A stretch of 64,000 nucleotides of DNA from Gammaproteobacteria bacterium (lineage in GTDB: Bacteria; Pseudomonadota; Gammaproteobacteria; CAJXQU01): contig JALSRM010000037.1 in assembly GCA_026984775.1 (NCBI GenBank), positions 49,604 to 113,603 of the forward strand, written 5' to 3'. Of the stretch, positions 6,424 through 62,915 are shown piece by piece. The position numbers were made by a program, and so were the translations under genes. The notes beneath the pieces are model-generated. The model was not told the DNA's origin, did no database searches, and saw only the letters and a program-made list of their open reading frames with translations. Within the stretch, counting starts at the first letter, position 1; each line of letters begins with the position of its first letter.

Positions 6424-6443
6424 ACCGAATTGATCGTAGCATA

Positions 6444-7442
6444 GTGTCAATGAAACGCAGACACTTTCTCGATTTGTCAATGAAAAGTGCAGTATTGGCC
6501 GGTTTTGCTGCAAAGCCGTTCAGGCTGCTCGCTGAATCAGAAAAATCTTCAACCGGTCTGGTCTTGGACGATGGTTTCATACATCACCATATATCGCCAG
6601 GTCATCCTGAATCACCCCAACGATATCAAGCGATTAAACAAGAATTTGTGGAACAAGACCTGATTGCCAGAACCTCTGCCATATCCCCAAGAGATGATGT
6701 GGATCAGTGGCTTAGGTTGGTTCATACCAGAAATCATATCGCTTCGATTAAAAAACTGGATAACCACACCCATCATGATGCTTCTCTGGCCACTGCCGGA
6801 ATTCTGGCAGCGGTGGATCAAGTCTGCTCAGGTAGAATCAGGAACGCCTTCTGTGCAACACGGCCTCCTGGTCATCATGCCAGGAATACCGGCCAGGAAG
6901 AAGGGTTCTGTTATTATAACCATGTTGCGATCGCCGCCCGATATGCCCAGAAAAACTATCCTCTGAAAAAAATTCTCATTGTCGATTGGGACTATCATCA
7001 TGGAAACGGGACGGAAGAGACATTCTATGCGGACCCCAGTGTGCTCTTTTTTTCCACACATGATTATAACGCTTATCCTGGTACTGGTAATCCAGCAAAA
7101 AGAGGTGTCGGTAAAGGGGAAGGCTACAATATCAATGTGCATATGGATTGTGGCGCTGGTGACGAAGACTTTATTAAGGTCTTCAATAGGATCCTGCTTC
7201 CTGCAGCAGAGGTTTTTGCACCGGACCTTATTCTGATCTCTGCTGGTTTTGACAGCCGTAAAGAAGATCTTCTTGGTTGTCATGAGGTCACCGATCAGGG
7301 GTTTTCGCATCTTACGCAAATCGTCATGCAGATTGCCGAAAGGCACTGTGATGGGCGTATAGTTTCACTTCTTGAAGGTGGGTACAACATCAGGGGAAAT
7401 GCCAAGGCGGCCGCTGCCCATCTAAATACACTGATGCTGTGA
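6444..7442 (+). CDS. Histone deacetylase-family amidohydrolase (acetylpolyamine/acetoin-utilisation type) with predicted Tat signal peptide
   Basis: DWDYHHGNGT and other HDAC-fold motifs; the N-terminus MSMKRRHFLDLS..AVLAGFAA fits a twin-arginine signal. Confidence 0.7.
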   Translation: MSMKRRHFLDLSMKSAVLAGFAAKPFRLLAESEKSSTGLVLDDGFIHHHISPGHPESPQRYQAIKQEFVEQDLIARTSAISPRDDVDQWLRLVHTRNHIASIKKLDNHTHHDASLATAGILAAVDQVCSGRIRNAFCATRPPGHHARNTGQEEGFCYYNHVAIAARYAQKNYPLKKILIVDWDYHHGNGTEETFYADPSVLFFSTHDYNAYPGTGNPAKRGVGKGEGYNINVHMDCGAGDEDFIKVFNRILLPAAEVFAPDLILISAGFDSRKEDLLGCHEVTDQGFSHLTQIVMQIAERHCDGRIVSLLEGGYNIRGNAKAAAAHLNTLML

Positions 7443-16598: not shown

Positions 16599-19500
16599 TC
16601 AACTGTCGGCTTCATCATATCCAAGATTTGGTGCGAGCCAACGTTCGATAGTGGAAATATCCATGCCCTTGCGTCTGGCGTAATCCTGGATTTGATCACG
16701 ATTGAGCTTGCCCACACCGAAGTAACGTGATTCAGGGTGTGAAAAATACCAGCCACTGACAGCCGCTGTTGGTACCATGGCATAGTGCTCGGTCAGGGTA
16801 ATCCCTGTATTTTTCTCAACATCCAGCAATTCCCAGAGCAGGGGTTTTTCGGTGTGATCAGGACAGGCCGGATAACCAGGCGCTGGTCTTATGCCCTGGT
16901 ATTGTTCGGCTATCAAAGCGTTATTGTCGAGGTGCTCATCCGGAGCGTAGCCCCAGAATTCTGTACGCACTCGCTGATGCATCCTTTCGGCAAAGGCTTC
17001 GGCCAGCCGATCAGCCAGTGCTTTGAGCATGATAGCACTATAATCATCGTGATCCGTTTCGAATTCAGCGAGTTTGTTTTCCATCCCAAAACCGGTGGCA
17101 ACGGCAAAGGCACCAATATAGTCCTCTACGTGCTTTTCCTGAGGGCCAATGAAATCGGCCAGTGCATAGTTGGGCTGACCCGGCGGCTTGCGTGTCTGCT
17201 GACGTAGAGAATGGATGACCATGAGTTCACCATCACGATTCTCACTGCTATAGATCTCGATATCGTCATCACCTATGGTGTTTGCGGGGAAGAGGCCTAT
17301 CACTCCTCTTGCAGTGAACCATTTTTCTTCAATGATCCGATCGAGCATGTGCTGGGCATCCTGATAGAGTTTGGTTGCTTCTTCTCCCACCGATTTATCT
17401 TGCAGAATACGCGGAAATTTCCCGGCCAGTTCCCATGCTATGAAGAAGGGTGTCCAGTCGATATATTCTCGTAACTCGGCAAGGGAGTAATCTTCGAATA
17501 CATGGATACCCGGTTGTTTCGGAACAGGAGGTGTATAACTGGACCAGTCGATGGGTGTTTTGTTTTCGCGTGCCTGATCCAGTGTCAGCCATTCGGTTTT
17601 TGACTGTCTGCCCTTATGACGTTCACGCACCATGTCATATTCCTTTTTAAGTTCCTGGACTAACTCTTCCTTCATCTCCACATTCAGAAGCCGGGTAGAG
17701 ATACCTACAGCGCGTGAAGCATCCTTTACATGAACAACCGGATGGTCGTAGTTCGGGTCGATCTTAACGGCCGTATGAGCTCTTGAGGTCGTAGCACCGC
17801 CTATCATCAGTGGCAAAGTGAATTCCTGCCGTTGCATTTCCTTGGCAACATGAACCATCTCATCAAGGGAAGGGGTGATAAGCCCACTGAGGCCAATCAG
17901 ATCGGCATTCAATTCCCGGGCCTTGTCGAGGATGGTTTGTGCAGGCACCATGACTCCAAGATCAATGACTTCAAAATTGTTGCACTGAAGAACGACACCG
18001 ACGATATTTTTTCCAATATCGTGCACATCCCCCTTGACGGTTGCCATGATAATCTTACCGTTTGTCTGGGTCTCGCCTGCTACCTTTTCCGCTTCGATAT
18101 AGGGCAACAGATAGGCAACTGCCTTCTTCATGACCCTTGCACTCTTGACGACCTGGGGCAGAAACATCTTCCCTGCACCAAACAGATCACCCACGACATT
18201 CATTCCCTCCATCAGAGGGCCCTCAATGACATCCAAAGGCTTTTCTGCCTTTTGACGGGCTTCTTCAGTATCTTCCTCGATAAATTCCGCGATACCTTTG
18301 ACCAGAGCATGTGTGATCCGCTCCTGAACAGTACCTTTTCGCCACTCCAGATCTGCTTTTCTTTCTTTTGTTCCACCACTTTCAGCCTTGAATCTTTCGG
18401 CGAACTCGACCAATCGATCGGTGGCATCAGGTCGACGATTCAGAAGCACATCTTCAATCCGTTCCAACAGATCATCCGGGATTTCATCGTAGATGCCGAG
18501 CTGACCAGCATTGACAATAGCCATATCCAGTCCTGCCTGGATGGCGTGGTAAAGGAAAACCGCATGCATAGCCTCTCGCACAGGAGTGTTACCACGAAAT
18601 GAAAAGGAGACGTTACTTAACCCCCCGCTTACCAGTGCGTAGGGTAAATGCTCCTTGATGAGTCGTGTGGCCTCAAAGAAGGAAACCGCATAGTTGTTGT
18701 GCTCTTCCATACCCGTTGCCACGGTGAGCACATTGGGATCAAAGATAATATCCTCAGGTGGGAACCCGACCTGGTTAACCAGCAGGTTGTAGGATCGCTT
18801 GCAAACCTCGAAGCGGCGTTCAGTGGTGTCAGCTTGTCCTTTTTCATCGAAAGCCATTACCACCACGGCAGCGCCGTAACGTCGAACCAGTTTGGCTCGT
18901 TCCAGAAACTTTTCCTCACCTTCCTTTAGGCTGATCGAGTTGACAATTGGCTTTCCTTGTACACAACGCAGGCCTGCTTCAATGACAGACCATTTTGAGG
19001 AATCAATCATGACCGGAACACGACTGATATCCGGTTCTGAGGCAATGAGGTTGAGAAAATCCTGCATCAGTTGCGCGGAATCGAGCATGCCCTCATCCAT
19101 ACAAATATCAATGATTTGAGCACCATTTTCCACTTGTTGACGGGCAACTTCCAAAGCAGCATCTAAATCCTGTTCTTCCTTGATTAAGCGCAGAAATTTG
19201 GGGGAGCCGGCAACATTGGTCCGCTCTCCTACATTTACAAAATTGACATCAGGTGTGATATTGAAAGGTTCGAGACCGGAGAGGCGCTGTACAATCGGCA
19301 GATCCGGTATTTTCCTGGGGGATATGCCCTCAATGGCTTCTGCCATAGCGCGGATATGATCCGGTGTTGTGCCACAACAGCCACCAACGATATTGAGCAG
19401 ACCGGCTTCAGCCCATTCGTGGATATGCTTGGACATTTCCGGCGCTTCCAGATCATACTCACCGAATTCGTTGGGAAGTCCGGCATTAGGATGGGCACTA

Positions 19501-20312
19501 ACAAAGGTTTCCGAGAACGAAGCCAGTTCTTCAACATACTGGCGCAAATCTGCCGGGCCTAGGGCGCAGTTTAAGCCAATGGATAAGGGTTTCGCATGAC
19601 GCAGTGAGTTATAAAAGGCCTCGACGGTTTGACCGGTCAATGTCCGGCCGGATGCATCTGTGATAGTGCCAGAGATCATAATGGGTAAGCATATGTTCTG
19701 CTTTTCGAAATACTGATCAATAGCAAAAAGGGCGGCTTTGGCATTCAAGGTATCGAAAATGGTTTCGACCATCAGGATATCGACACCTCCTTCAACCAGG
19801 CCCCTGACTGCATCTGTATAGGCCTCGACCAGTTCCATGAAAGTGATGTTCCGGTAGCCCGGGTTATTGACATCAGGAGAAATGGAACAAGTTCTGTTGG
19901 TTGGTCCGAGTACACCGGCGACATACCGGGGTTTAGATGGATCAGAAAACGTGAACTCATCCGCGACCTCTCGGGCCAGCATGGCTCCTGCCAGATTCAG
20001 TTCATAGGCCAGTTTTTCCTGTTGATAATCAGCCAGGGCGATGGAAGTGGAGTTGAAACTATTTGTCTCAACGATATCCGCACCAGCCTCAAAATAGGCA
20101 CGATGGATCGATTTGATAATCTCTGGTTGAGTCAATGACAGCAGATCATTGTTGCCTTTTACATCACAGGGATGGTCAGCGAAACGCTCCCCACGGTAAT
20201 CGGCTTCTTCCAGGTTATAAGACTGGATCATCGTCCCCATTGCGCCATCCAGCAGCAGGATTCGTTCCCTCAGGGAGCAGTGAAGATGAGCCAGTCTTTT
20301 TTCGCGATTCAT
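16599..20312 (-). CDS. metH: Cobalamin-dependent methionine synthase
   Basis: Hcy-binding, pterin-binding, B12-binding (DxHxxG region) and AdoMet activation domains all recognisable; start set at [10 protein letters not shown]...[15 protein letters not shown], which aligns with the E. coli MetH N-terminus; the ORF track start at 20423 is rejected. Confidence 0.95.
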
Positions 20313-20430
20313 AGAGTTTTTGGATCGGTGATTGTTTATCAAAACGCTCAATTTTACATTGATTTGATGTATATGACTAAAATTAACTGTAATTTCACAC
20401 TTGATAGACAGAATCTTATCCAATAATTAG

Positions 20431-20494
20431 CCATTACTAATATTACTAATTTATAATATATGTTGCATAAAAAATTAGTGAATGCTAATATTAG
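20431..20494. promoter_or_regulatory. Divergent metH/arsR promoter region with direct repeat ATTACTAAT x2, a TATAAT box (20452-20457) and the palindrome CTAATATTAG (20485-20494)
   Basis: Repeats and palindrome read directly from the sequence; the palindrome is the expected ArsR/SmtB-type operator geometry. Confidence 0.4.
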
Positions 20495-20505
20495 AGAAGA
20501 CGAAT

Positions 20506-20802
20506 ATGAACGTTAATGAAATGGAAAAAAATGCAAAGGAGGCCTCAAATCTGCTGAAGTCTCTGGCCAACCCTAACCGGTTAATGGTGCTCTGTCACCT
20601 CAGCAAAAACGAATGCACAGTTGGAGAGCTGGAAAAACTTGTTGGATTAAGCCAGTCGGCATTATCCCAGCATCTGGCCAGACTGAGAGAAGAAGAGATT
20701 GTCGAATGCAGAAGGGAAGCCCAAAGCATGCATTATTCCGTCAGGGATGAAAAGACAAAGAAATTACTAGAATCGTTGTATGAACTGTATTGTAACACCT
20801 GA
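20506..20802 (+). CDS. ArsR/SmtB-family transcriptional regulator, possibly SqrR/BigR-like (Cys in helix alpha2 and near the C-terminus)
   Basis: wHTH region ...VGELEKLVGLSQSALSQHLARLREEEIV...; Cys in VLCHL and in C-terminal ELYCNT; start taken at the second ATG (20506) because the first (20482) sits inside the palindrome and lacks an SD. Confidence 0.7.
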   Translation: MNVNEMEKNAKEASNLLKSLANPNRLMVLCHLSKNECTVGELEKLVGLSQSALSQHLARLREEEIVECRREAQSMHYSVRDEKTKKLLESLYELYCNT

Positions 20803-20850
20803 AAACTTATACAAAAGCAGTTACAGAACCCATTAACAAGGAGTAAAGAG

Positions 20851-21057
20851 ATGAACATCGATCGCATGGTTTTTGCAATTGCTGGTACTTTTATACTAGT
20901 CAGTTTAGCCCTTTCACAGCTTCATTCGATCTATTGGTTGTGGTTTACAGCCTTCGTCGGGGCAAACATGTTGCAGGCAGCTTTTACAGGTTTCTGCCCG
21001 CTCGCAAAGATACTGGCTAAGTTGGGTATAAAGTCAGGCTGTGCCTTCCAAGAGTAA
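20851..21057 (+). CDS. DUF2892 (YgaP-like) small inner-membrane protein
   Basis: 68 aa with two TM helices and a conserved C-terminal Cys ([13 protein letters not shown]); this family commonly follows ArsR/BigR-type regulators. Confidence 0.6.
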
Positions 21058-21067
21058 ACGAACATAG

Positions 21068-21628
21068 ATGAAACAAGCAGGACTTGTCTTTACCTTTCTA
21101 CTTTCACTGGCTGTTCAGGCGGAACCTGTGGTGAACTATGAGAAGGAAGCCGAAGCAGTGGCTGGCCAATTGCTCAAAGAATTGGGTTCTGCCTTAAAAA
21201 AACAGATTCAGGAAGGCGGGCCTGAACAGGCAGTAAAGGTATGTTCGGAACTGGCGCCCGAGATTGTAAACCGCCTTTCAATAGAGAAGGGTTGGAGAAT
21301 CACACGAGTAGGGACGCGTGTAAGAAACCCGCTACTTGGAACCCCCGACCGCTGGGAACAAGAAGCTCTTGCCTATTTTGAGCGACGCGCAGCCGGCGGA
21401 AACGATCTGAAAGATATGAGTTACTCAGAGATTGTCGAAGAGCCTGCTGGTCGCTATTTTCGGTACATGAAGCCTTTGGTGATCAAACCCTTGTGCATGA
21501 TTTGTCATGGTGAGGCTTCCCAGATTCCTGACACCATAAAGAAGACCTATCCTCATGACAGAGCAACTGGTTATCATGTCGGAGATTTGAGAGGTGGAAT
21601 TGTTATTAAACGACCATTGTCTGAATGA
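21068..21628 (+). CDS. Periplasmic DUF3365 (Tll0287-like) protein with c-type haem motif
   Basis: Signal peptide MKQAGLVFTFLLSLAVQA; a single CxxCH (CMICHG); size and pattern of DUF3365 haem sensor-like proteins. Confidence 0.55.
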   Translation: MKQAGLVFTFLLSLAVQAEPVVNYEKEAEAVAGQLLKELGSALKKQIQEGGPEQAVKVCSELAPEIVNRLSIEKGWRITRVGTRVRNPLLGTPDRWEQEALAYFERRAAGGNDLKDMSYSEIVEEPAGRYFRYMKPLVIKPLCMICHGEASQIPDTIKKTYPHDRATGYHVGDLRGGIVIKRPLSE

Positions 21629-21660
21629 CCTCCTTATGGATTTCATGTTGTCAGACACGT

Positions 21661-21684
21661 GGCCCCATATGGGGCCTTTTTTAT
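21661..21684 (+). terminator. Rho-independent terminator GGCCCCATATGGGGCC + TTTTTTAT
   Basis: GC-rich hairpin plus T-tract immediately after the DUF3365 stop. Confidence 0.8.
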
Positions 21685-21753
21685 GTAATGTTGGATGTTA
21701 TGATTTAGCCTGTATAGGAGTATGCGCTCGAAATTTAGTCTCTTTAAGAGGAT

Positions 21754-21779
21754 TCTATAGATCACATTTTTTCTATAGA
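21754..21779. promoter_or_regulatory. Two copies of the palindrome TCTATAGA spaced 18 bp centre-to-centre, about 90-115 bp upstream of the 21869 gene
   Basis: Read directly from the sequence: TCTATAGAtcacatttttTCTATAGA. Confidence 0.3.
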
Positions 21780-21868
21780 ATAATACTCTGAATAACAAGT
21801 AGATAAATTTATTAGTTGTAGTAAACTCTCATACGATTAAACAACGATAGCAAGGAAATCCTGAACGC

Positions 21869-22996
21869 ATGACCAATCCTGACGGGAAAAGGACGGTTCT
21901 TGTAAACCTGATCGGAATCGATCAACGCAACCGGAATGTTATCGAAATGGTCTTCGAACGGGAATTCGACAACTCTTTTTCCCTTGGGAATACAGGTTCA
22001 GCAGATCTGAGTATCGTCGATCTGGACAAATATGGTGCTGAAGAGGAATGGTCAGCACTGCAACAGGCAAAGTCTGATCAGCTTGCGGTTCTCATGTCGA
22101 TAGATGAAAAACACAGGTCGCCAAATCATCTTTTTATCAAAAAACCTGTAACGATTGCTGATCTGGTTACTGCACTCAACAAGGCAAGGAATAAACTCGT
22201 TACAGGGACTTTTACACCGGAAAAAAAACAATACTCTTGGCGAAATATTTTTACTCCTCGTCTCTCAATAAAGAAAAAGAGAAGTACAGGTTCTGAACAC
22301 AAGAAAGAATCAACGAAATCTGATGCCATCAGATACCTTAGTGAGAAAGGTTATCTGATTGATGAAGTCAAAAAAGCCGTATTACTAGCAAATACGGAAG
22401 GCCATGGTATCAAGCTGCAAATTAACAATCAGGGAAGTATTTTTATTGATCCGACTGAACATTGGATCAATACCGATTTAACCCCTGAAGGTTTGAAGGA
22501 CCTGTGCGAGAGACCGATCGAACGCTCAGATTTTATGAAGCGTGTTTTCAGTGATCGGGAGTTTTCGAAGTATCTCGAGGAGTGGCGAGATACTCGTCTG
22601 AAACCAATAGATATAGATGCCTTTCTCTGGGATCTGGCATTGTGGACATATGATGGTGCATTACCTGCGGGTACTGACCTGAAAAAGAAAATCGTTCTCA
22701 GCTACTGGCCTGATCTGCCCCGGTTTACGCCTGTTCCGAATGCCATGCGGATTGCTGCACTTTGGGTTTCATGCCCCATGACCTTGCTTGAGACCAGCGA
22801 GGTACTCAAGATTTCTATGGAAGATGTCATCCGTTTTTACACGGCTGTGTCAAGTCTGGGATTGATCAAGGACGGAAGTCAGAACGAGAATCCCGGTAAT
22901 CAGCCTGAACTGAGTAGAACAACCGTTAGATCAGAGAAAAACAAAAGAGAACTCTATCTCCGTATAATCAAATATCTCAAAGGGCAAAATTCCTGA
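21869..22996 (+). CDS. Hypothetical protein: N-terminal receiver (REC)-like domain plus C-terminal domain of unknown function with an HTH-like end (DUF742-like?)
   Basis: N-terminus resembles CheY-like receivers (hydrophobic strand TVLVNLIG, candidate acceptor Asp in LSIVDLDKYG, conserved K-P in LFIKKPVT); the C-terminus ...TLLETSEVLKISMEDVIRFYTAVSSLGLIKDG resembles a small wHTH; no confident family assignment. Confidence 0.5.
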   Translation: MTNPDGKRTVLVNLIGIDQRNRNVIEMVFEREFDNSFSLGNTGSADLSIVDLDKYGAEEEWSALQQAKSDQLAVLMSIDEKHRSPNHLFIKKPVTIADLVTALNKARNKLVTGTFTPEKKQYSWRNIFTPRLSIKKKRSTGSEHKKESTKSDAIRYLSEKGYLIDEVKKAVLLANTEGHGIKLQINNQGSIFIDPTEHWINTDLTPEGLKDLCERPIERSDFMKRVFSDREFSKYLEEWRDTRLKPIDIDAFLWDLALWTYDGALPAGTDLKKKIVLSYWPDLPRFTPVPNAMRIAALWVSCPMTLLETSEVLKISMEDVIRFYTAVSSLGLIKDGSQNENPGNQPELSRTTVRSEKNKRELYLRIIKYLKGQNS

Positions 22997-22998
22997 TA

Positions 22999-23958
22999 AT
23001 GGAAATAACAAAACAAAAATCGTTGCCCACTGATTCTCATCTCGATGATTACAGAATCCAGAAATGCATTTCAGTTTCAGACGAATTTGTTACCTATCTG
23101 GCCATTGATCAACAGCTGGAATTGCAACTAATTATTACGGAGTACTTTCCTAGTGAAATCGTCTATAGAATGGATAACGGTACTGTTCATGTGAAAGAGC
23201 CGAGGCGAATTGCTGAATTTTTGGATAAGCTCAATGAGCTTCATAAACGAGTTAAAGCGAGGGTGTCTCGAAATGACAAGGGAGTCGACAATGTTATTCG
23301 TTTTCTTTTTTTCAATGGAACTGCTTATGTTGTCTCAAAATACAGTACCCGAACGGATTTGGATCGTTATCTCTCGGAAATGAACCTGACGATCCAAGGT
23401 AGTGAGTTATCGGGGTGTACAGGTAAAGACTCATTATGTCAGAAGGTAACGATCGAAAACAGTATCGTCTTTACTGGTTTTGCACGAGCAGGCAAGTCAA
23501 CAGCGATCAGGTTACTGAGTGACGGTGACATGATCGATAAAGAATCAGGTCTGGCTTATGGGAAACTGGGGACCGGTAGTCTTGAGATCTATTTGTTGGA
23601 ACTGTCCGCTGATCATTTTGAAAACTGTTTGAAAGCTGAACCAATGGGTTACGTCTTGCTGATCGATAACAGCAGAAAGGATCCTTTTAATCACCTTGAT
23701 TATTTTCTTGACAAAATGGACGAACATCGACTGGAAAATGTCGTGATCGGCATCACACATACTGATCAATCCAGGATTCCATCGATCCCTGATTATCATC
23801 TTCATCTTGAAAACAGATCTATCAATTCACGCAGAATATGCCCTATCTTCTCTGTTGATCCACGGAACAGGTCCGATGTGACCATGCTCATCAAGGCACT
23901 TATTTACTCTCATGATCCACTTCTGTCAGACATTTTTTTTGAAGACACGATCCTTTGA
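22999..23958 (+). CDS. Hypothetical P-loop NTPase, small-GTPase-like C-terminal domain with N-terminal domain of unknown function
   Basis: Walker A GFARAGKST; then a hhhhD box (VLLIDNSR) and GITHTD resembling the [N/H/T]KxD G4 motif of MglA/Rag-type GTPases; the start is coupled 3 bp after the upstream stop. Confidence 0.5.
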   Translation: MEITKQKSLPTDSHLDDYRIQKCISVSDEFVTYLAIDQQLELQLIITEYFPSEIVYRMDNGTVHVKEPRRIAEFLDKLNELHKRVKARVSRNDKGVDNVIRFLFFNGTAYVVSKYSTRTDLDRYLSEMNLTIQGSELSGCTGKDSLCQKVTIENSIVFTGFARAGKSTAIRLLSDGDMIDKESGLAYGKLGTGSLEIYLLELSADHFENCLKAEPMGYVLLIDNSRKDPFNHLDYFLDKMDEHRLENVVIGITHTDQSRIPSIPDYHLHLENRSINSRRICPIFSVDPRNRSDVTMLIKALIYSHDPLLSDIFFEDTIL

Positions 23959-24058
23959 AAAATATTTTTCTTCAAAGAGTTAATTCCCGCTGATTGAAGT
24001 AATTTGTTTACCGGCCGATACAGGTTGCGATATGGATTGATTCCGGGGTTTTATTTCC

Positions 24059-24421
24059 ATGCGTGAAGACATGCTTGTTTCGATATTGAATGAATTGAAT
24101 GGATCGACTGTCGACATCCAGGGATCGGCCGTTATTTCTATTGACGGATTATTGATCGCCAGTGCATTACCGACGAGTTTTGACGAAGAAATGGTAAGCG
24201 CAATGACAGCGGCAATGTTGATGCTTGGGGAGAGGACCGCCAGAGAACTACAGCGTGGTGAACTTGAGCAGGTGATTGTCAAGGGCCGTCTGGGTTATGT
24301 GATCATGGTCCGATCTGGTCCGGAATCTGTTCTTTGTGTACTTGCCCGTCCTGATGCCAAATTGGGGCTCGTACTGCTGGATGCAGCACGAGCCGCCGAA
24401 GATATTCCAAAGGTATTATGA
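24059..24421 (+). CDS. Roadblock/LC7 (MglB-like) domain protein
   Basis: 120 aa; IQGSAVISIDGLLIAS...EEMVSAMTAAMLMLGERTA...GYVIMVRSGPESVLCVLARPDAKLGLVLLD fits the Roadblock/LC7 fold pattern closely. Confidence 0.7.
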   Translation: MREDMLVSILNELNGSTVDIQGSAVISIDGLLIASALPTSFDEEMVSAMTAAMLMLGERTARELQRGELEQVIVKGRLGYVIMVRSGPESVLCVLARPDAKLGLVLLDAARAAEDIPKVL

Positions 24422-24437
24422 TCCGTCAGATGGAGGA

Positions 24438-25712
24438 CTAACCACAGTCCAGTTTTGTTATCCCCAACAATTTCAGGAACTGCCGCTCATAGTAGGGATC
24501 TGTCTTCCCGGTTTTTACCTTCCGCAGATGATATTTCTCAAACATCACTTTTGCTGCATGAACCCATTTTCCCTGTTTTGCCCAGGTTACGTTTCGTGGA
24601 GGGATCTGTGGCATGGCGACAAAGGCAATACCTGAATCCCCCATATCTGCAAGGCAGATGGCGTTCCATGTTGCTGTGTGTGAAGGTTGTTTGCCATTTA
24701 GAAGTTCTGCAATATTTCCAACGGTTGCACACACCATGGATTCGATCATATACCCGGTTTTGGGCACACCCGTAGGCACAGGTGTTGTCTCGGGCGGGGC
24801 AATAGCAATGCAGACACCTGCAGCAAAAATATTGTCATACGTTGGATTCCGCTGGTATTCATCGACGATAATAAAACCTCTAGGATTGACCAGGCCTTCG
24901 ATACCCATGACTGCATCAATTCCGGTAAAGGCGGGCAGAATCATGGAATAGTTGAAAGGGAGTTCATGTTTTTTCTTTGTTTCACCATTGTCATCGACTT
25001 CGGTGATAAACATGGTATTTTCTTCAATTTTGTCGATTTTTGCGTTGGTAATCCAGTTGATATGTCGATCCCGGAGAACGCCTTCCAGTAAATCCTTTGA
25101 ATTGCCGACACCACCCAGTCCCAGATGGCCGATATAAGGCTCCGAGGTGACGAATGTCATCGGTACCTTGTGTCGTATTTTTTTCTTTCGTAATTCAGTA
25201 TCGGCAATGAAGGCATACTCATAAGCGGGGCCAAAGCAGGATGCAAGTTGGGCTGCTCCAACAATCATCGGCCCGGGGTTCTCAACAAATTTATCCCACT
25301 CTTTGGCTGCTTCTACTGCATGATCAACGTGGCAGATTGATTTCGTAAATCCGTCAGGCCCTAATCCTGGAATTTCATCGAAGGCCAGGCGTGGACCTGT
25401 TGTGATCGCGAGGTAGTCATAGGTGACCTCGGTGCCATCTTCCAGTTCTATACGGTTTTCATCTGGATGCAGGCGTTTCGCAGCTTTGGGGATGAAGTCA
25501 ATATTTTTCCTTTCGAGGTAGGGCTTTAATTCAACCTTGATGTTATCAGGTGTTCTCCAGTTAACGGCAACCCAAGGATTGGAAGGTACGAAGTGGAACG
25601 TAGGACTGTCTGAAATCAATGTCACCTGATCATTCGGTCCTGCCTTTTCACGCATTTCATAAGCGAGTGTTGTACCAGCGATTCCGCCCCCGAGAACGAT
25701 TATTTTTGCCAT
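24438..25712 (-). CDS. sqr: Sulfide:quinone oxidoreductase (FAD-dependent pyridine nucleotide-disulfide oxidoreductase family)
   Basis: N-terminal FAD fold IVLGGGIAGTT; about 425 aa; SQR-typical segments (VPSNPWV, the Cys-containing loop GVCIAIAPPETTPVPTGVPKTGYMIESM). Confidence 0.8.
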   Translation of the reverse strand: MAKIIVLGGGIAGTTLAYEMREKAGPNDQVTLISDSPTFHFVPSNPWVAVNWRTPDNIKVELKPYLERKNIDFIPKAAKRLHPDENRIELEDGTEVTYDYLAITTGPRLAFDEIPGLGPDGFTKSICHVDHAVEAAKEWDKFVENPGPMIVGAAQLASCFGPAYEYAFIADTELRKKKIRHKVPMTFVTSEPYIGHLGLGGVGNSKDLLEGVLRDRHINWITNAKIDKIEENTMFITEVDDNGETKKKHELPFNYSMILPAFTGIDAVMGIEGLVNPRGFIIVDEYQRNPTYDNIFAAGVCIAIAPPETTPVPTGVPKTGYMIESMVCATVGNIAELLNGKQPSHTATWNAICLADMGDSGIAFVAMPQIPPRNVTWAKQGKWVHAAKVMFEKYHLRKVKTGKTDPYYERQFLKLLGITKLDCG

Positions 25713-25792
25713 CTTCTGACCTCCAGGATTCCCATTTTTTAATGTAGTATTGTAGTGTAAATAAATTTGTTTGCATTCAATATAAGATAGTG

Positions 25793-25818
25793 CTAATATA
25801 AGAAAGATCTTATATTAG
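25793..25818. promoter_or_regulatory. 10-bp perfect inverted repeat CTAATATAAG-n6-CTTATATTAG in the sqr/MMPL divergent intergenic region
   Basis: Read directly from the sequence; shares the half-site TGCTAATAT with the palindrome at the arsR-family gene (20485-20494). Confidence 0.45.
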
Positions 25819-25832
25819 GAAAGGGTAACAGA

Positions 25833-28493
25833 ATGTCATCTAAAAAATCAAGCTGGTTAATCGATTGGGCTGTAGCGAGACCAAGATTTTTTACCTGGTT
25901 GATGGTGTTTTCCACATTTTTACTGATTATACTCGCAGCAGTGCCCAGTATCTGGCCGGAAAAGGTGCCTGCCTTACATAGCATCGAGGTTGATACCGAC
26001 CCGGAAAACATGCTCCCTGCAGATGAACCGGTCCGTCTCTTTCACAATGCTGCAAAGAAAGAATTTTCGCTCAATGACATTGTTGTGGTGGGAATTGTCA
26101 ACGATAAGCATCCAGAAGGTGTTTTCAATCCAGAATCATTACAACGGGTTTATGACCTGACTGAATTCGCAAAAACACTCCAGTGGTCTGATAAAGAAGG
26201 TAAACATGGTGTAGTCGAGATCGATATTATTGCGCCTTCCACGGTGGACAACATTGAGCAGGGAGGCATGGGTGTGGTCAATTTCAGTTGGTTGATGCCT
26301 CGACCACCCAAGACTCAGGAGGAAGCGCTTTCTATCCGTGAAAGAGCCATGAATATTCCTTTTCTGAAGGGAACCATGGTAAGCGAGGATGGCAAGGCAT
26401 TGGCTATCTATTTGCCCTTGGTAAGCAAGCATGATTCCTATGAAGTCCGCAAGGCATTACTGGGTTTTATAAAGGAGTGGGACGGTGATGAGCAGGTACA
26501 TATTACAGGACTACCTGTGGCTGAAGACACCTTCGGTGTCGAAATGTTTACCCAGATGGCAATCTCCGCCCCCCTTGCCATGCTTGTGATTTTTGTACTT
26601 CTGTGGTGGTTCTTCAGAAATTTGACACTGATTGTATCTCCCATGATCGTTGCCATGGTCAGCGCCCTTTCTACCATGGCCTTGCTGGTTATCACGGGTA
26701 ATACGATCCATATCATGAGTTCCATGATACCCATCTTTATCATGCCGATTGCCGTCCTTGACTCAATTCATATTCTCTCGGAGTTTTTTGATCGCTACCC
26801 TCAAATCAGGGATCGCAAGAAGACCATCATTGAGGTCATGAAGCATCTTTTTACACCGATGCTGTTTACCTCCGTGACAACAATGGCGGGTTTTGCGTCA
26901 CTGGCTTTAACTCCGATACCTCCTGTCCAAGTGTTTGGAATATTTGTTGCAATCGGAGTGTTCCTGGCCTGGTTCTGGACCATTGTCTTCATTCCTGCTT
27001 ATGTGATGCTGATGCCGGAGGCAAAGCTTGAAGGGTTTGGTCAATCTGTATCGGATAGTGGAGATACTACAGGCATGGCCAAATTTCTCCATGGACTTGG
27101 AAAATGGACACATGACCATCCTAAAACTGTTCTTGCAGTTACCTTTTTGTGTGTGCTTATTTCTGTCTATGGCATTAGCAGGATCCAGATTAATGATAAT
27201 CCAATCAAGTGGTTTGAGCCGGATCATCCTATCAGAGTCGCAGACAAGATCCTGAACGAACACTTTGGTGGAACCTATATTGCCTATTTGCAATACGAGG
27301 CAGACGATAAAGGACTTTCCGTGGACAGTTACATTACTGAATTGGAGCAACGCCTCGAGCAATGGAAAGCACAGGTATTGGCTGATGAATATGCTCAGGT
27401 GGAGGCTGTCTATACAAAAGCTGTTCAGCTTATGAAAGAAACCCAGGCCGAGTCCATCGAAGATTATCTGTCAAAGCTTCAAGGCAGGGTCAATGATCTC
27501 ATGGATCATGCTTCTGATGAAGAGTACGATACTTGGTCCGAGCTGGCATTATTCTTTGACCGAGAGGATCAAAGAAACGAGGTTTTCAAACAACCCGAGG
27601 TACTTCGATATCTCTCCAGGTTGCAGGACTTTCTTTTGCAGACTGGTGTCGTAGGCAAGGTCAATGCTTTACCCGATATCATCAAAACCGTACATCGTGA
27701 ACTGTTCCTTGGCGATGCTGATCATTTCCGTATTCCGGATAGTGTAAATGGTGTCGCGCAAACTCTGATTACTTATCAAAACAGTCATCGACCTCAGGAT
27801 TTGTGGCATTTCGTCACTCCAGATTACAAGAAAAGTAATCTGATGTTGCAACTCACCAGTGGTGACAACAAGGACATGGAAAAAGTTATTGCGGCAGTAG
27901 CAGATTTCGAAGAACAGAATCCGCCCCCAATGGCCTTGAAATCAAACTGGTTCGGACTTACTTATATCAATGTGATTTGGCAGGATCATATGGTACAAGG
28001 TATGCTGAAATCATTTATGGGCAGTTTCGTCATCGTTCTGTTAATGATGGTGTTCCTGTTCCGTTCAGCCTTGTTTGGTATTCTGTCCATGATCCCTCTG
28101 ACGGTAACGGTTGGCCTTATCTATGGTGTGATTGGCCTGATTGGAAAAGATTACGATATGCCTGTTGCCGTACTCAGCGCATTGAGTCTTGGGCTTGCGA
28201 TCGACTATGCGATTCATTTCCTTGCACGTTCACGGGAGGCTGTACGCGAAACCGGAAATTGGCACAATGCGGTAGATGTTGTCTTTGGTGAACCCGCTCG
28301 TGCGATCACAAGGAATGTGATCATACTTGGAGCTGGTTTTCTGCCATTGCTCGCCGCCCCGCTTGTGCCATATCAGACGGTAGGCTTTTTTATCGCTTCC
28401 ATACTGGTTTGTGCAGGTATTGCAACATTATTGATTTTACCTTCTGCCATGACATTACTTGAGAAGTATCTCTTTAGAGGAGAATTATCATGA
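25833..28493 (+). CDS. MMPL/RND-superfamily transporter (12 TM, two large periplasmic loops; HpnN/MmpL-like exporter)
   Basis: 886 aa with two hydrophobic bundles separated by soluble loops, an architecture typical of RND/MMPL; followed by LolA-like and outer-membrane-barrel genes. Confidence 0.75.
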   Translation: MSSKKSSWLIDWAVARPRFFTWLMVFSTFLLIILAAVPSIWPEKVPALHSIEVDTDPENMLPADEPVRLFHNAAKKEFSLNDIVVVGIVNDKHPEGVFNPESLQRVYDLTEFAKTLQWSDKEGKHGVVEIDIIAPSTVDNIEQGGMGVVNFSWLMPRPPKTQEEALSIRERAMNIPFLKGTMVSEDGKALAIYLPLVSKHDSYEVRKALLGFIKEWDGDEQVHITGLPVAEDTFGVEMFTQMAISAPLAMLVIFVLLWWFFRNLTLIVSPMIVAMVSALSTMALLVITGNTIHIMSSMIPIFIMPIAVLDSIHILSEFFDRYPQIRDRKKTIIEVMKHLFTPMLFTSVTTMAGFASLALTPIPPVQVFGIFVAIGVFLAWFWTIVFIPAYVMLMPEAKLEGFGQSVSDSGDTTGMAKFLHGLGKWTHDHPKTVLAVTFLCVLISVYGISRIQINDNPIKWFEPDHPIRVADKILNEHFGGTYIAYLQYEADDKGLSVDSYITELEQRLEQWKAQVLADEYAQVEAVYTKAVQLMKETQAESIEDYLSKLQGRVNDLMDHASDEEYDTWSELALFFDREDQRNEVFKQPEVLRYLSRLQDFLLQTGVVGKVNALPDIIKTVHRELFLGDADHFRIPDSVNGVAQTLITYQNSHRPQDLWHFVTPDYKKSNLMLQLTSGDNKDMEKVIAAVADFEEQNPPPMALKSNWFGLTYINVIWQDHMVQGMLKSFMGSFVIVLLMMVFLFRSALFGILSMIPLTVTVGLIYGVIGLIGKDYDMPVAVLSALSLGLAIDYAIHFLARSREAVRETGNWHNAVDVVFGEPARAITRNVIILGAGFLPLLAAPLVPYQTVGFFIASILVCAGIATLLILPSAMTLLEKYLFRGELS

Positions 28494-29299
28494 AACGATT
28501 AACAGTACTTTTGATATCACTGTTTTTGGCTGCCTCTGCCATTGCTGCAGATCCCACGATCGAAGAGATCGTGAACAGGGCAAATCTTGCAACTTACTAT
28601 CAAGGAAAGGATGGACGTGCGCATGTGAAAATGACTATTACGGATAGCCAGGGACGAAAACGTATGCGCAAGCTCACCATTCTGCGTTGGGATCAGCCCG
28701 ATACGGATGAGCTTGAAAATGGCGCTTATCGTGGAAAGCAGAAATTCTATGTCTACTTCTCGCGTCCTGCAGATGTCAACAAAATGGTATTCCTCGTTTG
28801 GAAGAATCTAGACAAGGATGACGATCGCTGGTTATATCTCCCAGCGCTTGATCTTGTTAAGCGAATAGCCGCTTCTGACAAACGAACGAGTTTTGTAGGG
28901 TCTGACTTCTTCTATGAAGATGTTTCCGGCCGTGATATTGATGAAGATGAGCATGAGCTGTTGAAGACAACGGATAAATATTTCGTTATCAAGAATACGC
29001 CAAAAGATCCATCTTCCGTTGAGTTTGCCTATTACATGATGTATATCCACAAAAAAACGTTCCTCCCGATCCAGGTGGAATACTACGATGCGCAGGATAA
29101 GAAATATCGTGTCGCTAAGGCATTGAAGGTGGAAAATATCCAAGGTCATCCAACCGTAACCAAGGCAAGTATGGAAAGCCTCAATCAAGGTAGCAAGACT
29201 GTAATGGAATACTCCTCAGTAAAATATGATACAGGGATTCCTGAAGATATTTTTACTGAAAGGTATTTACGAAAACCGCCTAGAAAATATCTTAAATAA
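28490..29299 (+). CDS. Outer-membrane lipoprotein-sorting (LolA-like, DUF1329-type) periplasmic protein
   Basis: Signal peptide MKRLTVLLISLFLAASAIA; 4-bp overlap with the MMPL gene; this family commonly accompanies MMPL transporters. Confidence 0.65.
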   Translation: MKRLTVLLISLFLAASAIAADPTIEEIVNRANLATYYQGKDGRAHVKMTITDSQGRKRMRKLTILRWDQPDTDELENGAYRGKQKFYVYFSRPADVNKMVFLVWKNLDKDDDRWLYLPALDLVKRIAASDKRTSFVGSDFFYEDVSGRDIDEDEHELLKTTDKYFVIKNTPKDPSSVEFAYYMMYIHKKTFLPIQVEYYDAQDKKYRVAKALKVENIQGHPTVTKASMESLNQGSKTVMEYSSVKYDTGIPEDIFTERYLRKPPRKYLK

Positions 29300-29301
29300 C
29301 C

Positions 29302-30798
29302 ATGCGTTTGTTACTTCCTGTTTTACTGATATCTTCTTTTAGCGTTCTGGCCCAGGCCGGAGAGCCAGCCCTCCCTGAAGGTCTTGAAGAGTTTGAGAGT
29401 CCATCTTTGGATGAACCTGCTCTGCCTGAAGGTTTGGCTGACGACTCAGCAGCTTCTGATGAAGCGGAACTGCCAGGAGGTATTGAAAGGGGTAACAAAA
29501 TACCCACTTCAGCTCAAGAACCGGAATTGCCGGAAGGACTTGGCGAAGAGACATTAGTAGAAGAGGGTTTTGAGGCTGGTTCAGATAAGGAGGGTTTTGC
29601 CGATCTCTCCGGATTTTGGGAAGTTCGCCTTGGCACAAGAACTCAGGATGATCGTTTTGAAGACGATCGTTCGATCACAGAAACACGTTTGCAGTTTGAT
29701 CTGGAGCACACTCTGGGCTTATTCAACCTTCACCTGGTGAGTGATCTTGTCTATGATGATCTGGCAGACACTCATGAAATCAAACTGGAAACCGGCCAAG
29801 GCTGGATTGATTTACGTGAGGCTAATCTCTCTTTCACACCAACGAGCTTCATGGATGTGAAGATTGGTCGTCAGATCTTGACCTGGGGCACAGGTGATCT
29901 GCTATTCATCAACGATCTTTTCCCGAAAGACTGGCAGGCTTTTTTCATAGGTCGAGACGTAGAATATCTGAAAGCCCCATCGGATGCCTTTAAACTGGCC
30001 TTTTTCAGTGGTGTGATGAACCTCGACCTTGTCTATACCCCTCGCTTTGATACAGATCGTTTTATCAACGGGAGCAGGATTTCCTATTTCAGTCCACTGG
30101 CAGGTGGTATTGCAGGACAGAATTCGGTGATCGATGCTGTCAATCCTGATAATACATTTACCGATGATGAACTGGCAATTCGTCTGTACAGAAACTTTGG
30201 TGCCATTGAAACAGCTTTTTATGCATACAATGGTTTCTGGAAGAGTCCGGGGGGATTTGATCCACTGACAGGCAAGGCTGTTTTCCCTGATCTGCGTGTC
30301 TATGGTGCGAGTCTGCGGAGTCCTGTAGGGAAGGGTATTGCAAACCTCGAGATAGGATACTATGACTCTAGGATGGACAGGAACGGTACTAATCCATTTA
30401 TAAATAACAGTGAATTTCGACTGTTGATCGGATACGAAAGGGAAATCGCCAAAGAGTTGACCATGGGTCTCCAATATTATCTGGAACGTATCTCCGATTA
30501 CAGTGCCTATGAGGCCAGTCTGCCGTCCGGTTTTCCGACCAGGGATCACAACCGGCACTTGTTTACTTTGCGTCTGACCAAACTGACACATAATCAGAAT
30601 GTGATCTGGTCTGTTTTTGCGTATGCATCTCCATCGGACAAAGATTTCTATCTGCGTCCACACGTGACCTATAAGATCGATGATCATTGGACGATGGAAG
30701 CAGGAGGAAATATTTTTGGTGGTGAACGAGAATATACCTTTTTCGGTCAGTTTCAGGAGAATACCAACCTCTACGCTGCAATACGCTATAGTTTCTGA
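29302..30798 (+). CDS. Outer-membrane beta-barrel protein (DUF1302-like) with N-terminal Pro/Glu-rich ALPEGL repeats
   Basis: Signal peptide; repeats (E)PALPEGL x4; alternating amphipathic beta-strand pattern; C-terminal ...AAIRYSF ending in Phe, the outer-membrane-protein signature. Confidence 0.6.
   Translation: MRLLLPVLLISSFSVLAQAGEPALPEGLEEFESPSLDEPALPEGLADDSAASDEAELPGGIERGNKIPTSAQEPELPEGLGEETLVEEGFEAGSDKEGFADLSGFWEVRLGTRTQDDRFEDDRSITETRLQFDLEHTLGLFNLHLVSDLVYDDLADTHEIKLETGQGWIDLREANLSFTPTSFMDVKIGRQILTWGTGDLLFINDLFPKDWQAFFIGRDVEYLKAPSDAFKLAFFSGVMNLDLVYTPRFDTDRFINGSRISYFSPLAGGIAGQNSVIDAVNPDNTFTDDELAIRLYRNFGAIETAFYAYNGFWKSPGGFDPLTGKAVFPDLRVYGASLRSPVGKGIANLEIGYYDSRMDRNGTNPFINNSEFRLLIGYEREIAKELTMGLQYYLERISDYSAYEASLPSGFPTRDHNRHLFTLRLTKLTHNQNVIWSVFAYASPSDKDFYLRPHVTYKIDDHWTMEAGGNIFGGEREYTFFGQFQENTNLYAAIRYSF
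29355..29560 (+). repeat. Four imperfect tandem copies of a 30-60-nt unit encoding [PE]-[AE]-LPEGL inside the outer-membrane-protein gene
   Basis: gccctccctgaaggtctt / gctctgcctgaaggtttg / gaactgccaggaggtatt / gaattgccggaaggactt seen directly in the sequence. Confidence 0.6.
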
Positions 30799-30860
30799 AT
30801 AACTGTAATCGATCTGTTTTACTGCTAAGCTCTTTCCCAGTTGAATGAGTACACGTGGTT

Positions 30861-31775
30861 ATGAAAATCCAGTGGTACCCCGGCCATATGCACAAGGCCA
30901 GAAGGGAGATAAGCAAATCTCTGTCCAAGATTGATCTTGTCATCGAGATCATTGACGCCCGCATACCATACAGCAGTGAGAACCCGGTACTTGCCGATCT
31001 AAGGAGAGAGAAACCTTGTATCATGGTGATGAACAAGGTGGATCTGGCCGATCCCGAATTGACTGAAAGGTGGCAGGCTTACTTTACACACCATTCAGAA
31101 AGTGTTTCAACATTGACTGTTTCGACTAAAGAACCAGCGAGTGTTAAAAGTTTACCATCGCTGATCAGAAAAAGTTTATCTGCACATCGAGAAACGATTA
31201 ATGCCATGATTGTTGGCATACCCAATGTCGGAAAATCGACCCTGATCAACACACTGGCAGGCCGTAGTATTGCCAAGACGGGTAATGAACCTGCAATTAC
31301 CAAGGCACAACAACGGATCAAACTGGGTGGTGGGATCACTCTTTCCGATACACCAGGTGTGCTCTGGCCCAATGTAGAAAACCGGAATAGCGGTTTTCGT
31401 CTCGCAGCAACCGGTGCGATCAGGGATACCGCCATGGAGTACCCAGAGACAGCTTTGTTTCTTGCGGAATACCTAATGCAGAACTACCCACTTGATCTTA
31501 AATCCCGGTATGGTCTGGATGAGATCCCGGATTCTCAAATGGAGCTTATGGAATTGATCGGGGCCAAGAGAGGTTGTCTGAGATCAGGAGGAATGGTTGA
31601 TTTGGAAAAAGTCTCGCGGTTGTTCTTGATCGATTTTCGATCTGGAGCAATTGGTCAAATCACACTTGAAAGCCCTGAAGATATGATCAGGGAAAAAGCA
31701 GAGCTTGATCGGGAAAGGGAAATGAAAAGAGCTGATAAGCTTGCCCGGAAGGGAAGACGTAAACAGAGGAAATGA
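30861..31775 (+). CDS. rbgA: Ribosome biogenesis GTPase A (YlqF/RbgA, circularly permuted GTPase)
   Basis: MKIQWYPGHMHKARREI N-terminus; NKVDLAD (G4) precedes GIPNVGKSTLIN (G1), the circularly permuted order. Confidence 0.85.
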   Translation: MKIQWYPGHMHKARREISKSLSKIDLVIEIIDARIPYSSENPVLADLRREKPCIMVMNKVDLADPELTERWQAYFTHHSESVSTLTVSTKEPASVKSLPSLIRKSLSAHRETINAMIVGIPNVGKSTLINTLAGRSIAKTGNEPAITKAQQRIKLGGGITLSDTPGVLWPNVENRNSGFRLAATGAIRDTAMEYPETALFLAEYLMQNYPLDLKSRYGLDEIPDSQMELMELIGAKRGCLRSGGMVDLEKVSRLFLIDFRSGAIGQITLESPEDMIREKAELDREREMKRADKLARKGRRKQRK

Positions 31776-62886: not shown

Positions 62887-62915
62887 ATACGAAAATTCCT
62901 GACTGGAAATACAGT

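Follow-up and report, generated by a model that had tools for sequence, protein, structure and literature searches.

Persulfide sensing within the ArsR family has been described for a clade comprising SqrR, BigR, YgaV and HlyU, which corresponds to cluster 4 of the sequence similarity network in PMC10509353. Persulfide-specific bridging and loss of DNA binding have been shown for HlyU (PMC10509353) and for YgaV (PMC9774250). HlyU reacted with persulfide and not with H2O2, and only persulfide abolished its binding to DNA (PMC10509353); YgaV formed a tetrasulfide with sulfide and is derepressed by it (PMC9774250). HlyU represses its own gene (PMC6018088), the operators of ygaVP (PMC9774250) and of hlyU (PMC6018088) are placed in a repressor layout, and BigR binds at the -10 region of its own operon for sulfur detoxification and so represses it (PMC5823870, PMC7315123). 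Here we consider a stretch of 64,000 nucleotides from an uncultured gammaproteobacterium (assembly GCA_026984775.1, contig JALSRM010000037.1, positions 49,604 to 113,603; below, the window), in which an ArsR-family regulator gene heads a three-gene operon and lies near a gene for a type I sulfide:quinone oxidoreductase (SQR) and an MMPL transporter operon. An earlier note on this DNA had proposed that the operon responds to sulfide or persulfide, regulates itself and plausibly controls the nearby sqr. We consider it probable that the regulator is a persulfide-responsive winged-helix repressor of the HlyU/YgaV/BigR/SqrR clade, which would control its own operator array and a second one between sqr and the MMPL operon. 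The observations behind this reading are the placement of the regulator in its family, the alignment of its cysteines, the boundaries of its operon and the conservation and specificity of its operator.

The regulator matches the ArsR/SmtB domain HTH_5 (PF01022) at 7.4e-15, with 55 bits against a cut-off of 22, and is thus a member of that family. In a phmmer search of all PDB sequences its matches, over approximately the full length, were led by HlyU (3e-25), followed by SqrR (6e-22), BigR (1.5e-21), YgaV (2e-20) and NolR (6e-20). Of its four cysteines, C30 and C96 alone do not vary among 36 homologues of 55-100% identity (98-residue numbering; C38 and C104 in the long open reading frame). Both, one in helix alpha2 and the other close to the C terminus (alpha5), align with the SqrR pair C41/C107, as the earlier note had anticipated: the PDB alignments set LMVLCHL against SqrR LMIMCYL and ELYCN against SqrR EQFCS with the Cys residues matched, and the separation of 66 residues is the same in the two proteins. 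They also align with C31 and C98 of E. coli YgaV (residue numbers from PMC9774250), to which the regulator is 41% identical. The second Cys, in LYCNT, is the third residue from the end, not four residues from the C terminus as had been written. In addition, the segment LSQSALSQHLA is identical in HlyU of V. cholerae and V. vulnificus. We therefore assign the regulator to the two-cysteine HlyU/SqrR/BigR/YgaV clade, with HlyU as its closest relative of solved structure.

Two start codons have to be considered for this protein, an ATG at 20482, which gives 106 residues, and an ATG at 20506, which gives 98. Because the latter is used by the gene callers on two public contigs of identical sequence, and because 35 of 35 aligned homologues start with that Met, we take 20506 as the start; the ATG at 20482 is probably not used.

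The second line of evidence concerns the DNA. The earlier note had singled out two palindromes, CTAATATTAG at 20485-20494, before the regulator gene, and CTAATATAAGA-N4-TCTTATATTAG at 25793-25818, with perfect 11-nt arms, between sqr and the MMPL operon. Both are real, and the first is commoner than chance: with at most one mismatch, CTAATATTAG has four matches against 1.09 expected in 64 kb, all within the two intergenic regions. The unit itself is a different one, however. In the upstream regions of related loci, what is conserved is a 16-bp element, ATTAG-N6-CTAAT, whose half-sites are fixed and whose spacer varies, and which is arranged in tandem arrays, so that the palindromes are the junctions and centres of these arrays. 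Thus, CTAATATTAG consists of the right half of unit O2 and the left ATTAG of the abutting unit O2', and the palindrome at 25793-25818 takes in the right half of unit A, the whole of unit B and, from a degenerate third unit, the left half (Table 1). The repeats found in a repeat search have the same origin, the segments 20422-20445 and 20470-20493 being copies of each other, and the 16-bp direct repeat of the second region being units A and B and the third unit in their 16-bp register. The first palindrome had also been described as overlapping the first ATG of the regulator reading frame; it abuts the ATG at 20482 and, with the start probably at 20506, it falls into the promoter or leader.

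Exact copies of ATTAG-N6-CTAAT occur twice in 64 kb against 0.06 expected, a number reached by none of 100 shuffles, and both copies are upstream of the regulator. Related loci, which are designated here by L and a number, carry the element as well: the window, L003, L090, L091 and L092 each have two copies before the regulator gene, at a spacing of 45-48 bp, and L005 and L089 have one. Conserved half-sites with variable spacers are found at the regulator promoter in six related loci and at the sqr/MMPL region in L090 and L091. The latter two have three such units there, the middle one exact; the position orthologous to unit A is an exact site in both, and an equivalent of unit B is also present.

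Beyond the close relatives, we examined 80 foreign loci from among the matches listed, with regulators of 46-59% identity, mostly from Alpha- and Gammaproteobacteria. With at most one mismatch, the motif occurs 30 times in the 24.5 kb that lie within 300 bp upstream of these regulators, versus 13 times in the other 803 kb, a density approximately 75-fold higher upstream of the homologous regulators, and several of the 13 outside matches are just downstream of a regulator or before a divergent sqr. Abutting pairs of sites exactly 16 bp apart recur in L024, L026, L040, L047 and L078. A 22-bp matrix was then trained on 28 foreign sites only (the in-region matches of the first 28 listed loci); its consensus is TATATTAG-N6-CTAATATA. 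The seven best scores that it gives in the window, from 23.0 to 6.7, are all in the regulator promoter or the sqr/MMPL intergenic region, the next anywhere being 6.3; the mean maximum score in fifty Markov simulations was 11.1. Scanned over 7 kb of E. coli K-12 sequence, the matrix has its two best matches 16 bp apart and directly upstream of ygaV, and YgaV footprints at the ygaV promoter, near the transcription start 28 bp before the ATG (PMC9774250). The matrix also scores 12.4 on the 29-bp V. cholerae hlyA operator, the DNA used for HlyU binding in PMC10509353. A printed consensus of the BigR box was not found in the literature searched. Given the conservation of the element, its enrichment upstream of regulators, the behavior of the foreign-trained matrix and the matches in the ygaV promoter and the hlyA operator, we regard ATTAG-N6-CTAAT as the predicted operator of the clade, and the window as containing two arrays of it. 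The autoregulation proposed earlier is well supported by the conserved units at the regulator's own promoter, to which binding is predicted, as is a regulon shared between the two arrays.

The position of the units suggests the direction of control. In the promoter-like site of the regulator operon, for which TTAGCA-17-TAAAAT is read at the same place in the upstream alignment of relatives, O1 overlaps the -35 hexamer and the spacer, and O2 and O2' lie between this promoter-like site and the start codon, which is the layout of a repressor. Two further sequences, TTGCAT-17-TAATAT at 20463-20491 and at 25770-25800 before the MMPL gene, were considered as promoters overlapped by O2 and unit A and were rejected, as they match just 7 of 12 sigma-70 positions. 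The E. coli counterpart of TTGCAT is too near the mapped start for a promoter role (PMC9774250). At the other end of the region, the second array ends 4 nt before the MMPL ATG and is 70-117 bp from the sqr start codon.

It is less obvious which of the two divergent transcription units the second array would serve. By its full-length similarity to structurally characterised SQRs (3.7e-150 over residues 2-421 to A. ferrooxidans SQR, 3sz0; 7e-109 to Aquifex SQR, 3hyv), the product of 24438-25712 is assigned as a type I SQR, and its gene is 3.6 kb from the regulator gene. Opposite to it, the MMPL, LolA_like and DUF1302-like genes have ends that overlap or abut. L003 and L004 have sqr and are missing the MMPL operon, sqr being followed there by the MMR_HSR1 GTPase gene that is at 30855-31775 in the window; in L090 and L091, both the MMPL gene and the array are present; and in L026, a metagenome-assembled genome of the Porticoccaceae, the regulator gene itself has as its divergent neighbour an MMPL gene of 63% identity, and the interval between the two genes contains two sites. 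From these comparisons we favor the MMPL–LolA_like–DUF1302-like operon as the primary second target. Relative to L003 (10316-11485) and L004, this operon and its array constitute an insertion. Control of sqr is possible but a weaker inference than control of the MMPL operon. In L090 and L091, the first unit is just 35 bp from the sqr ATG, and an SQR of 57-64% identity is encoded within ~4 kb of the regulator in 8 of the 80 foreign loci, mostly adjoining it or in the same operon, with regulator–DUF2892–SQR as a frequent order among these. Of the suggestion that the operon's regulator controls the nearby sqr, what holds is that the sqr/MMPL intergenic region has the motif in common with the regulator promoter; the array travels with the MMPL operon and not with sqr. 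As a separate observation, L026 has between its regulator and DUF2892 genes (6422-6511) a 30-residue stretch that is 57% identical to the C-terminal part of the SQR of the window and looks like the remnant of an sqr lost from a regulator–sqr–DUF2892 operon.

In the mechanism that we propose, a dimeric 98-residue winged-helix protein would, in its reduced form, bind 16-bp ATTAG-N6-CTAAT units, either single or in abutting tandem. Units that cover its own promoter and continue just beyond it (20426-20505) would hold the regulator/DUF2892/sCache_haem operon low, and a second set (25782-25829), directly before the MMPL–LolA_like–DUF1302-like operon, would act on the latter. Sulfane sulfur, that is persulfide or polysulfide made, for example, from sulfide by the type I SQR, would bridge Cys30 and Cys96, and the bridged protein would leave the DNA, so that its own operon, the MMPL operon and perhaps sqr would be derepressed. 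We infer sulfane sulfur as the inducer, and repression as the mode of control, from the biochemistry of HlyU, YgaV, SqrR and BigR (PMC10509353, PMC9774250, PMC5823870); the functions of the cargo proteins are proposals.

Table 1. Genes, operator units and signals of the regulator operon and the sqr/MMPL region (window coordinates; matrix, score of the foreign-trained 22-bp matrix with the start of the match)
Position	Strand	Feature	Basis or score
20426..20441		Operator unit O1 ATTAGCCATTACTAAT, exact ATTAG-N6-CTAAT	Matrix 20.5 (start 20423); conserved in L003, L005, L089-L092
20428..20457	+	Promoter-like TAGCCA-18-TATAAT of the regulator operon	Consensus match, 10/12 positions
20442..20457		Weak operator-like unit, abuts O1 in 16-bp register	Matrix 14.6 (20439-20460)
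20474..20489		Operator unit O2 ATTAGTGAATGCTAAT, exact	Matrix 23.0 (start 20471), best in the window; conserved in L003, L090-L092
20490..20505		Weak unit O2' ATTAGAGAAGACGAAT, 1 mismatch, abuts O2, ends at the start codon	Matrix 12.7 (start 20487)
20506..20802	+	ArsR-family regulator, 98 residues	Pfam HTH_5; gene callers
20851..21057	+	Stand-alone YgaP-like_TM/DUF2892 membrane protein, 68 residues	Pfam; alignment
21068..21628	+	Secreted Tll0287-like/DUF3365 (sCache_haem) c-haem protein, 186 residues	Pfam, PDB 5b82
21661..21686	+	Intrinsic-terminator-like hairpin GGCCCCATATGGGGCC with T-run, closes the three-gene unit	
24438..25712	-	Type I SQR gene, possible regulon member, divergent from the MMPL operon	PDB matches
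25782..25797		Operator unit A ATAAGATAGTGCTAAT, 1 mismatch, sqr/MMPL region	Matrix 22.7 (start 25779), second best
25798..25813		Operator unit B ATAAGAAAGATCTTAT, 2 mismatches, palindromic in its own right, centre of the 26-bp palindrome	Matrix 17.3 (start 25795)
25814..25829		Degenerate third unit ATTAGGAAAGGGTAAC, overlaps the MMPL ribosome-binding region	Matrix 6.7 (start 25811), seventh best; weak alone
25833-28493	+	MMPL/HAE3-type RND transporter	Pfam, NCBIfam
28490-29299	+	LolA_like/DUF1329 protein	Pfam, NCBIfam
29302-30798	+	498-residue, weakly DUF1302-like protein	Pfam, NCBIfam

The regulator operon itself is delimited on both sides. From the list of open reading frames and a consensus scan, its three same-strand reading frames form one unit that runs from the promoter-like site to the terminator-like hairpin, flanked by the divergent metH (called start near 20312) and by that hairpin. 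The three families named in the earlier note are all found above the Pfam cut-offs, as HTH_5, YgaP-like_TM/DUF2892 and Tll0287-like/DUF3365. The order regulator–DUF2892–haem protein recurs in L090, L091, L092 and L094, whose haem proteins are just 64-67% identical; only DUF2892 is missing in L089.

For the second gene, YgaP-like_TM (3.6e-13, 49.9 bits against a cut-off of 25.3) is the sole Pfam match of the 68-residue reading frame. Its GFC(P) motif has F48 and C49 invariant, and G47 nearly so, in 14 regulator-adjoining homologues and the C terminus of E. coli YgaP. DUF2892 is the membrane domain of that YgaP, which is encoded directly after ygaV, and by tblastn it adjoins the regulator in 16 of the 80 foreign loci, in agreement with the partnership expected earlier. 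Rhodanese was looked for among the annotated genes at 20506-30798, and none is there; the N-terminal rhodanese domain of YgaP is missing from the 68-residue reading frame. Blh-type DUF442 and TauE are also among the foreign-locus neighbours. Neighbour counts by Pfam are lower bounds, as small genes are under-called (5 DUF2892 by Pfam versus 16 by tblastn). The association of the clade with sulfur genes is not universal, RND pumps and unrelated genes being common neighbours as well. AcrB-type RND pumps with HlyD-type adaptors stand directly downstream of the regulator in ~5 of the 80 foreign loci (L013, L040, L047, L066, L078), and by these gene neighbourhoods efflux systems form a second recurrent neighbour class of the clade, besides sulfur genes.

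The third gene encodes the haem protein. It matches the Tll0287-like family (PF11845) at 2.2e-27, with 96.7 bits against a cut-off of 24.1, its N terminus is signal-peptide-like and its CxxCH motif is CMICH at residues 143-147 (C143-x-x-C146-H147), all of which agrees with the periplasmic, CxxCH-containing DUF3365 protein described earlier. It aligns with Tll0287 (PDB 5b82; 1.4e-10), and in this alignment C59 meets a Cys of Tll0287; C59, C143, C146 and H147 are invariant in 38 sequences, and we propose C59 as an axial haem ligand. A 2026 preprint reclassifies the family as haem-containing Cache domains; it finds the binding of NO and O2 to be poor in stand-alone Cys/His members, for which it considers redox roles probable. 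The stand-alone protein of P. putida was shown there to have Cys/His ligation, with an axial Cys also numbered C59, and to bind NO/O2 weakly, and no physiological role or regulator of the stand-alone members is reported there (bioRxiv 10.64898/2026.02.01.703092).

Among 80 metagenome loci with haem proteins of 47-57% identity, the regulator is present only in L094, which is of the window's own lineage and has a 67%-identical haem protein. Operators are a different matter. In ~400 kb of these haem loci, the matrix gives four matches of at least 13, all ~80-110 bp upstream of the haem-gene match (L145, 25.3; L160, 18.6; L173, 15.2; L131, 13.6), and in L083, from the Halomonadaceae, an exact site separates the regulator gene from the haem gene downstream of it. 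Given these upstream matches and the exact site in L083, direct control through this operator type is predicted to recur among Tll0287-like genes, in several contexts that are unrelated to each other. Before three of the Tll0287-like genes (L145 1560-1700, L160 4860-5005, L173 200-352), an FNR-type box, TGAT-N6-ATCA, extended in L145 to TTGAT-N4-ATCAA, abuts ATTAG-N6-CT(A/T)AT, which suggests dual control of the haem-Cache gene there. In L145 and L160, a Crp/FNR-family gene is upstream, and a truncated-globin gene is downstream, of the Tll0287-like gene.

For the cargo as a whole (DUF2892, the haem protein and the RND system), the most likely roles would be to handle reactive sulfur or export it, or else to respond to it at the envelope. 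A narrower proposal, in which stand-alone Cys/His sCache_haem proteins, paired here with the one-Cys DUF2892 protein, would sense or detoxify sulfane sulfur as a module of the envelope under the direct control of HlyU/BigR-type persulfide sensors, is speculative, and we consider it rather unlikely as it stands.

Several points weigh against a persulfide-responsive repressor that controls both arrays. First, the best NCBIfam match of the regulator, the BigR equivalog NF040642, reaches 102.4 bits against a cut-off of 155, so that the regulator is a relative, not an orthologue, of BigR proper; the earlier designation as SqrR/BigR-like thus holds for the two-cysteine clade but not more closely, as HlyU is the nearest solved relative. 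Second, what HlyU is mainly known for is the activation (anti-silencing) of toxin genes and not the repression of sulfur metabolism. Third, units A and B of the sqr/MMPL region are imperfect, with one and two mismatches, and near sqr in L003 there is no site above a matrix score of 9, which weakens the link to sqr. Fourth, the promoter assignments are matches to a consensus only. Fifth, L003, L005 and L007, with regulators of 74-82% identity, are without the DUF2892 and haem genes and retain metH, the regulator and the downstream 375-residue protein/GTPase/Roadblock cluster, so that the content of the operon is accessory in this lineage. Finally, the usual neighbours of Tll0287-like genes are ZIP transporters, cytochromes c, globins and Metal_resist, and not sulfur genes.

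Other explanations are conceivable, of which none is favored by the data. The one that survives best retains the regulator and its operators and replaces sulfane sulfur by another signal, either general thiol oxidation, as in peroxide or disulfide stress, or the binding of haem. Such signals were once proposed for BigR and HlyU and have been discussed for SqrR and YgaV, and the identity of an oxidant cannot be told from sequence. In YgaV and SqrR, the first conserved Cys is reported to bind haem (PMC9774250, PMC12344995), and the operon here encodes a haem protein; moreover, in L145, L160 and L173, the partners of the Tll0287-like genes that carry this site are a Crp/FNR gene and a truncated globin, an O2/NO-type context. 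Against this stand the persulfide specificity of HlyU (PMC10509353), the tetrasulfide formed by YgaV with sulfide (PMC9774250) and the recurrence of SQR, DUF2892, DUF442 and TauE as neighbours in the clade, and we judge a different signal to be unlikely.

Somewhat less probable still is that the regulator acts as HlyU does on toxin genes, as an activator or anti-silencer that would displace a nucleoid protein from AT-rich DNA and be needed for expression of the MMPL operon and/or sqr. HlyU is the best PDB match and has LSQSALSQHLA in common with the regulator, the hlyA operator matches the matrix and the target regions are very AT-rich. The geometry, however, is that of a repressor, with sites over the -35 hexamer and spacer or between the promoter-like site and the start codon, and with units A to three reaching to within 4 nt of the MMPL ATG.

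That the palindromes might instead be structural elements of RNA or DNA, such as a leader hairpin that acts on the stability or translation of the MMPL mRNA, with the sharing of the motif as a by-product of AT-rich intergenic sequence, seems very improbable. The palindrome at 25793-25818 does fold well as RNA (-10.9 kcal/mol, z = -5.5) and is 15 nt upstream of the MMPL start codon, but the element on the regulator side folds weakly (-3.1 kcal/mol), the 5-nt half-sites are conserved across genomes while the spacers vary regardless of pairing, the foreign-trained matrix is highly specific for the two regions, and the DNA bound by YgaV and HlyU carries the same motif.

Least credible is a classical ArsR/SmtB metal or metalloid sensor controlling a metal-related haem protein and an efflux pump: the generic NCBIfam model HTH_metalloreg is above its cut-off (85.8 versus 55 bits), ZIP and Metal_resist genes are common near Tll0287-like genes and RND pumps near the regulator clade, but helix 3 is without the CXC motif, only D104 of the SmtB ligands is kept (in an ungapped alignment of query 20-96 to SmtB 35-111 the alpha5 ligand H106 is replaced by Lys, and H117 and E120, beyond the aligned stretch, project onto Leu and Asn), and in the PDB search SmtB as the best metal sensor reached 2e-10, with SmtB, CzrA, NmtR and CadC all at that value or worse, ~12 orders of magnitude behind the persulfide clade.

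Some features of the surroundings are conserved as well. In all relatives with enough upstream sequence, metH (B12-dependent methionine synthase; 16599-20312, - strand) is divergent from the regulator, and the MetH proteins of L001-L008 and L089-L091 are 74-100% identical. We considered metH as a target of the regulon and set it aside: its promoter-like site (20379-20351) is outside the operator array, and a regulatory link is not evident. Directly downstream of the regulator operon, at 21869-24421, is a conserved three-gene cluster for a 375-residue protein, for which searches of Pfam and NCBIfam gave no match, a 319-residue protein with the Walker A motif GFARAGKST, whose C-terminal half resembles the C terminus of a kinase-fused 504-residue protein in L005, and a Roadblock/LC7 protein. 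The cluster resembles a GTPase module of the conservon/MglAB type, and it follows the regulator in every relative, also where the DUF2892 and haem genes are missing. Upstream of the 375-residue gene, at 21752-21781, is a perfect inverted repeat, ATTCTATAGA-N10-TCTATAGAAT, which is unrelated to ATTAG-N6-CTAAT and is possibly the site of another regulator. A search of the 64-kb window with Rfam gave only four tRNAs (a cluster at 62810-63224), and nothing in the regions of interest. By its PpsA protein the window could be placed just loosely, the best match with a name being a metagenome-assembled genome of the Thiotrichaceae at 69%.

In general, the locus is a further persulfide-type ArsR regulon of known kind, and as such fairly ordinary; it adds to these regulons a comparatively supported example from an uncultured gammaproteobacterium. 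Its new detail is that Cys/His sCache_haem genes recur as predicted targets of the operator, which provides a testable lead for the stand-alone members of the Tll0287-like family. The 22-bp operator model, often in 16-bp tandem and common to homologues of many Proteobacteria, can be used to predict regulons of the clade from sequence, and the regulator type becomes linked to RND/MMPL envelope systems. If the envelope-module proposal were true, it would supply a first physiological role for the large stand-alone half of the haem-Cache family and would tie an HAE3-type RND/LolA_like/DUF1302 system to sulfide stress. Current understanding is not overturned by any of these results.

Compared with the systems from which we started, the window regulator resembles HlyU of V. 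cholerae and V. vulnificus (PDB 4k2e, 3jth) in its 98-residue length class and in both aligned cysteines, and the hlyA operator TAAATTAATTCAGACTAAATTA (sequence from PMC10509353) fits the matrix. It differs in that hlyU is a lone gene for an activator of toxin genes, whereas the window regulator heads an operon with a DUF2892 and a c-haem gene and has its sites in repressor positions, beside a transporter operon and sqr. With YgaV–YgaP of E. coli (PDB 3cuo), it has in common the order of a regulator followed by a DUF2892-domain protein and the two abutting 16-bp sites in the promoter; YgaP has an N-terminal rhodanese domain, whereas DUF2892 stands alone in the window and a haem protein is added, and the half-sites in E. 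coli (TTTAG...CTTAA) show more degeneracy.

SqrR of R. capsulatus (PDB 6o8k and related entries) is matched over its full length, including the equivalents of C41 and C107, and regulates sqr. The box deduced for it, ATTC-N8-GAAT (as cited in PMC9774250), shares the 16-bp 4-8-4 geometry of ATTA(G)-N6-(C)TAAT but differs in the fourth base of the half-site, and its recognition helix reads STRQAAVSQQLA, compared with LSQSALSQHLA here; for the window regulator, only two target regions are visible in the 64-kb window. BigR of Xylella/Agrobacterium and Acinetobacter (PDB 3pqj) is a two-cysteine sensor of the same clade, but its operons carry Blh (DUF442-ETHE1) and TauE, or YeeE/YedE and PDO2, none of which is in the window operon. 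The haem protein, finally, shares with Tll0287 and other sCache_haem proteins the Pfam match, the CXXCH motif and the aligned Cys, and is stand-alone and secreted like the P. putida protein; what sets it apart is that its gene is directly behind an operator of the HlyU/BigR type, here and in L083, L131, L145, L160 and L173.

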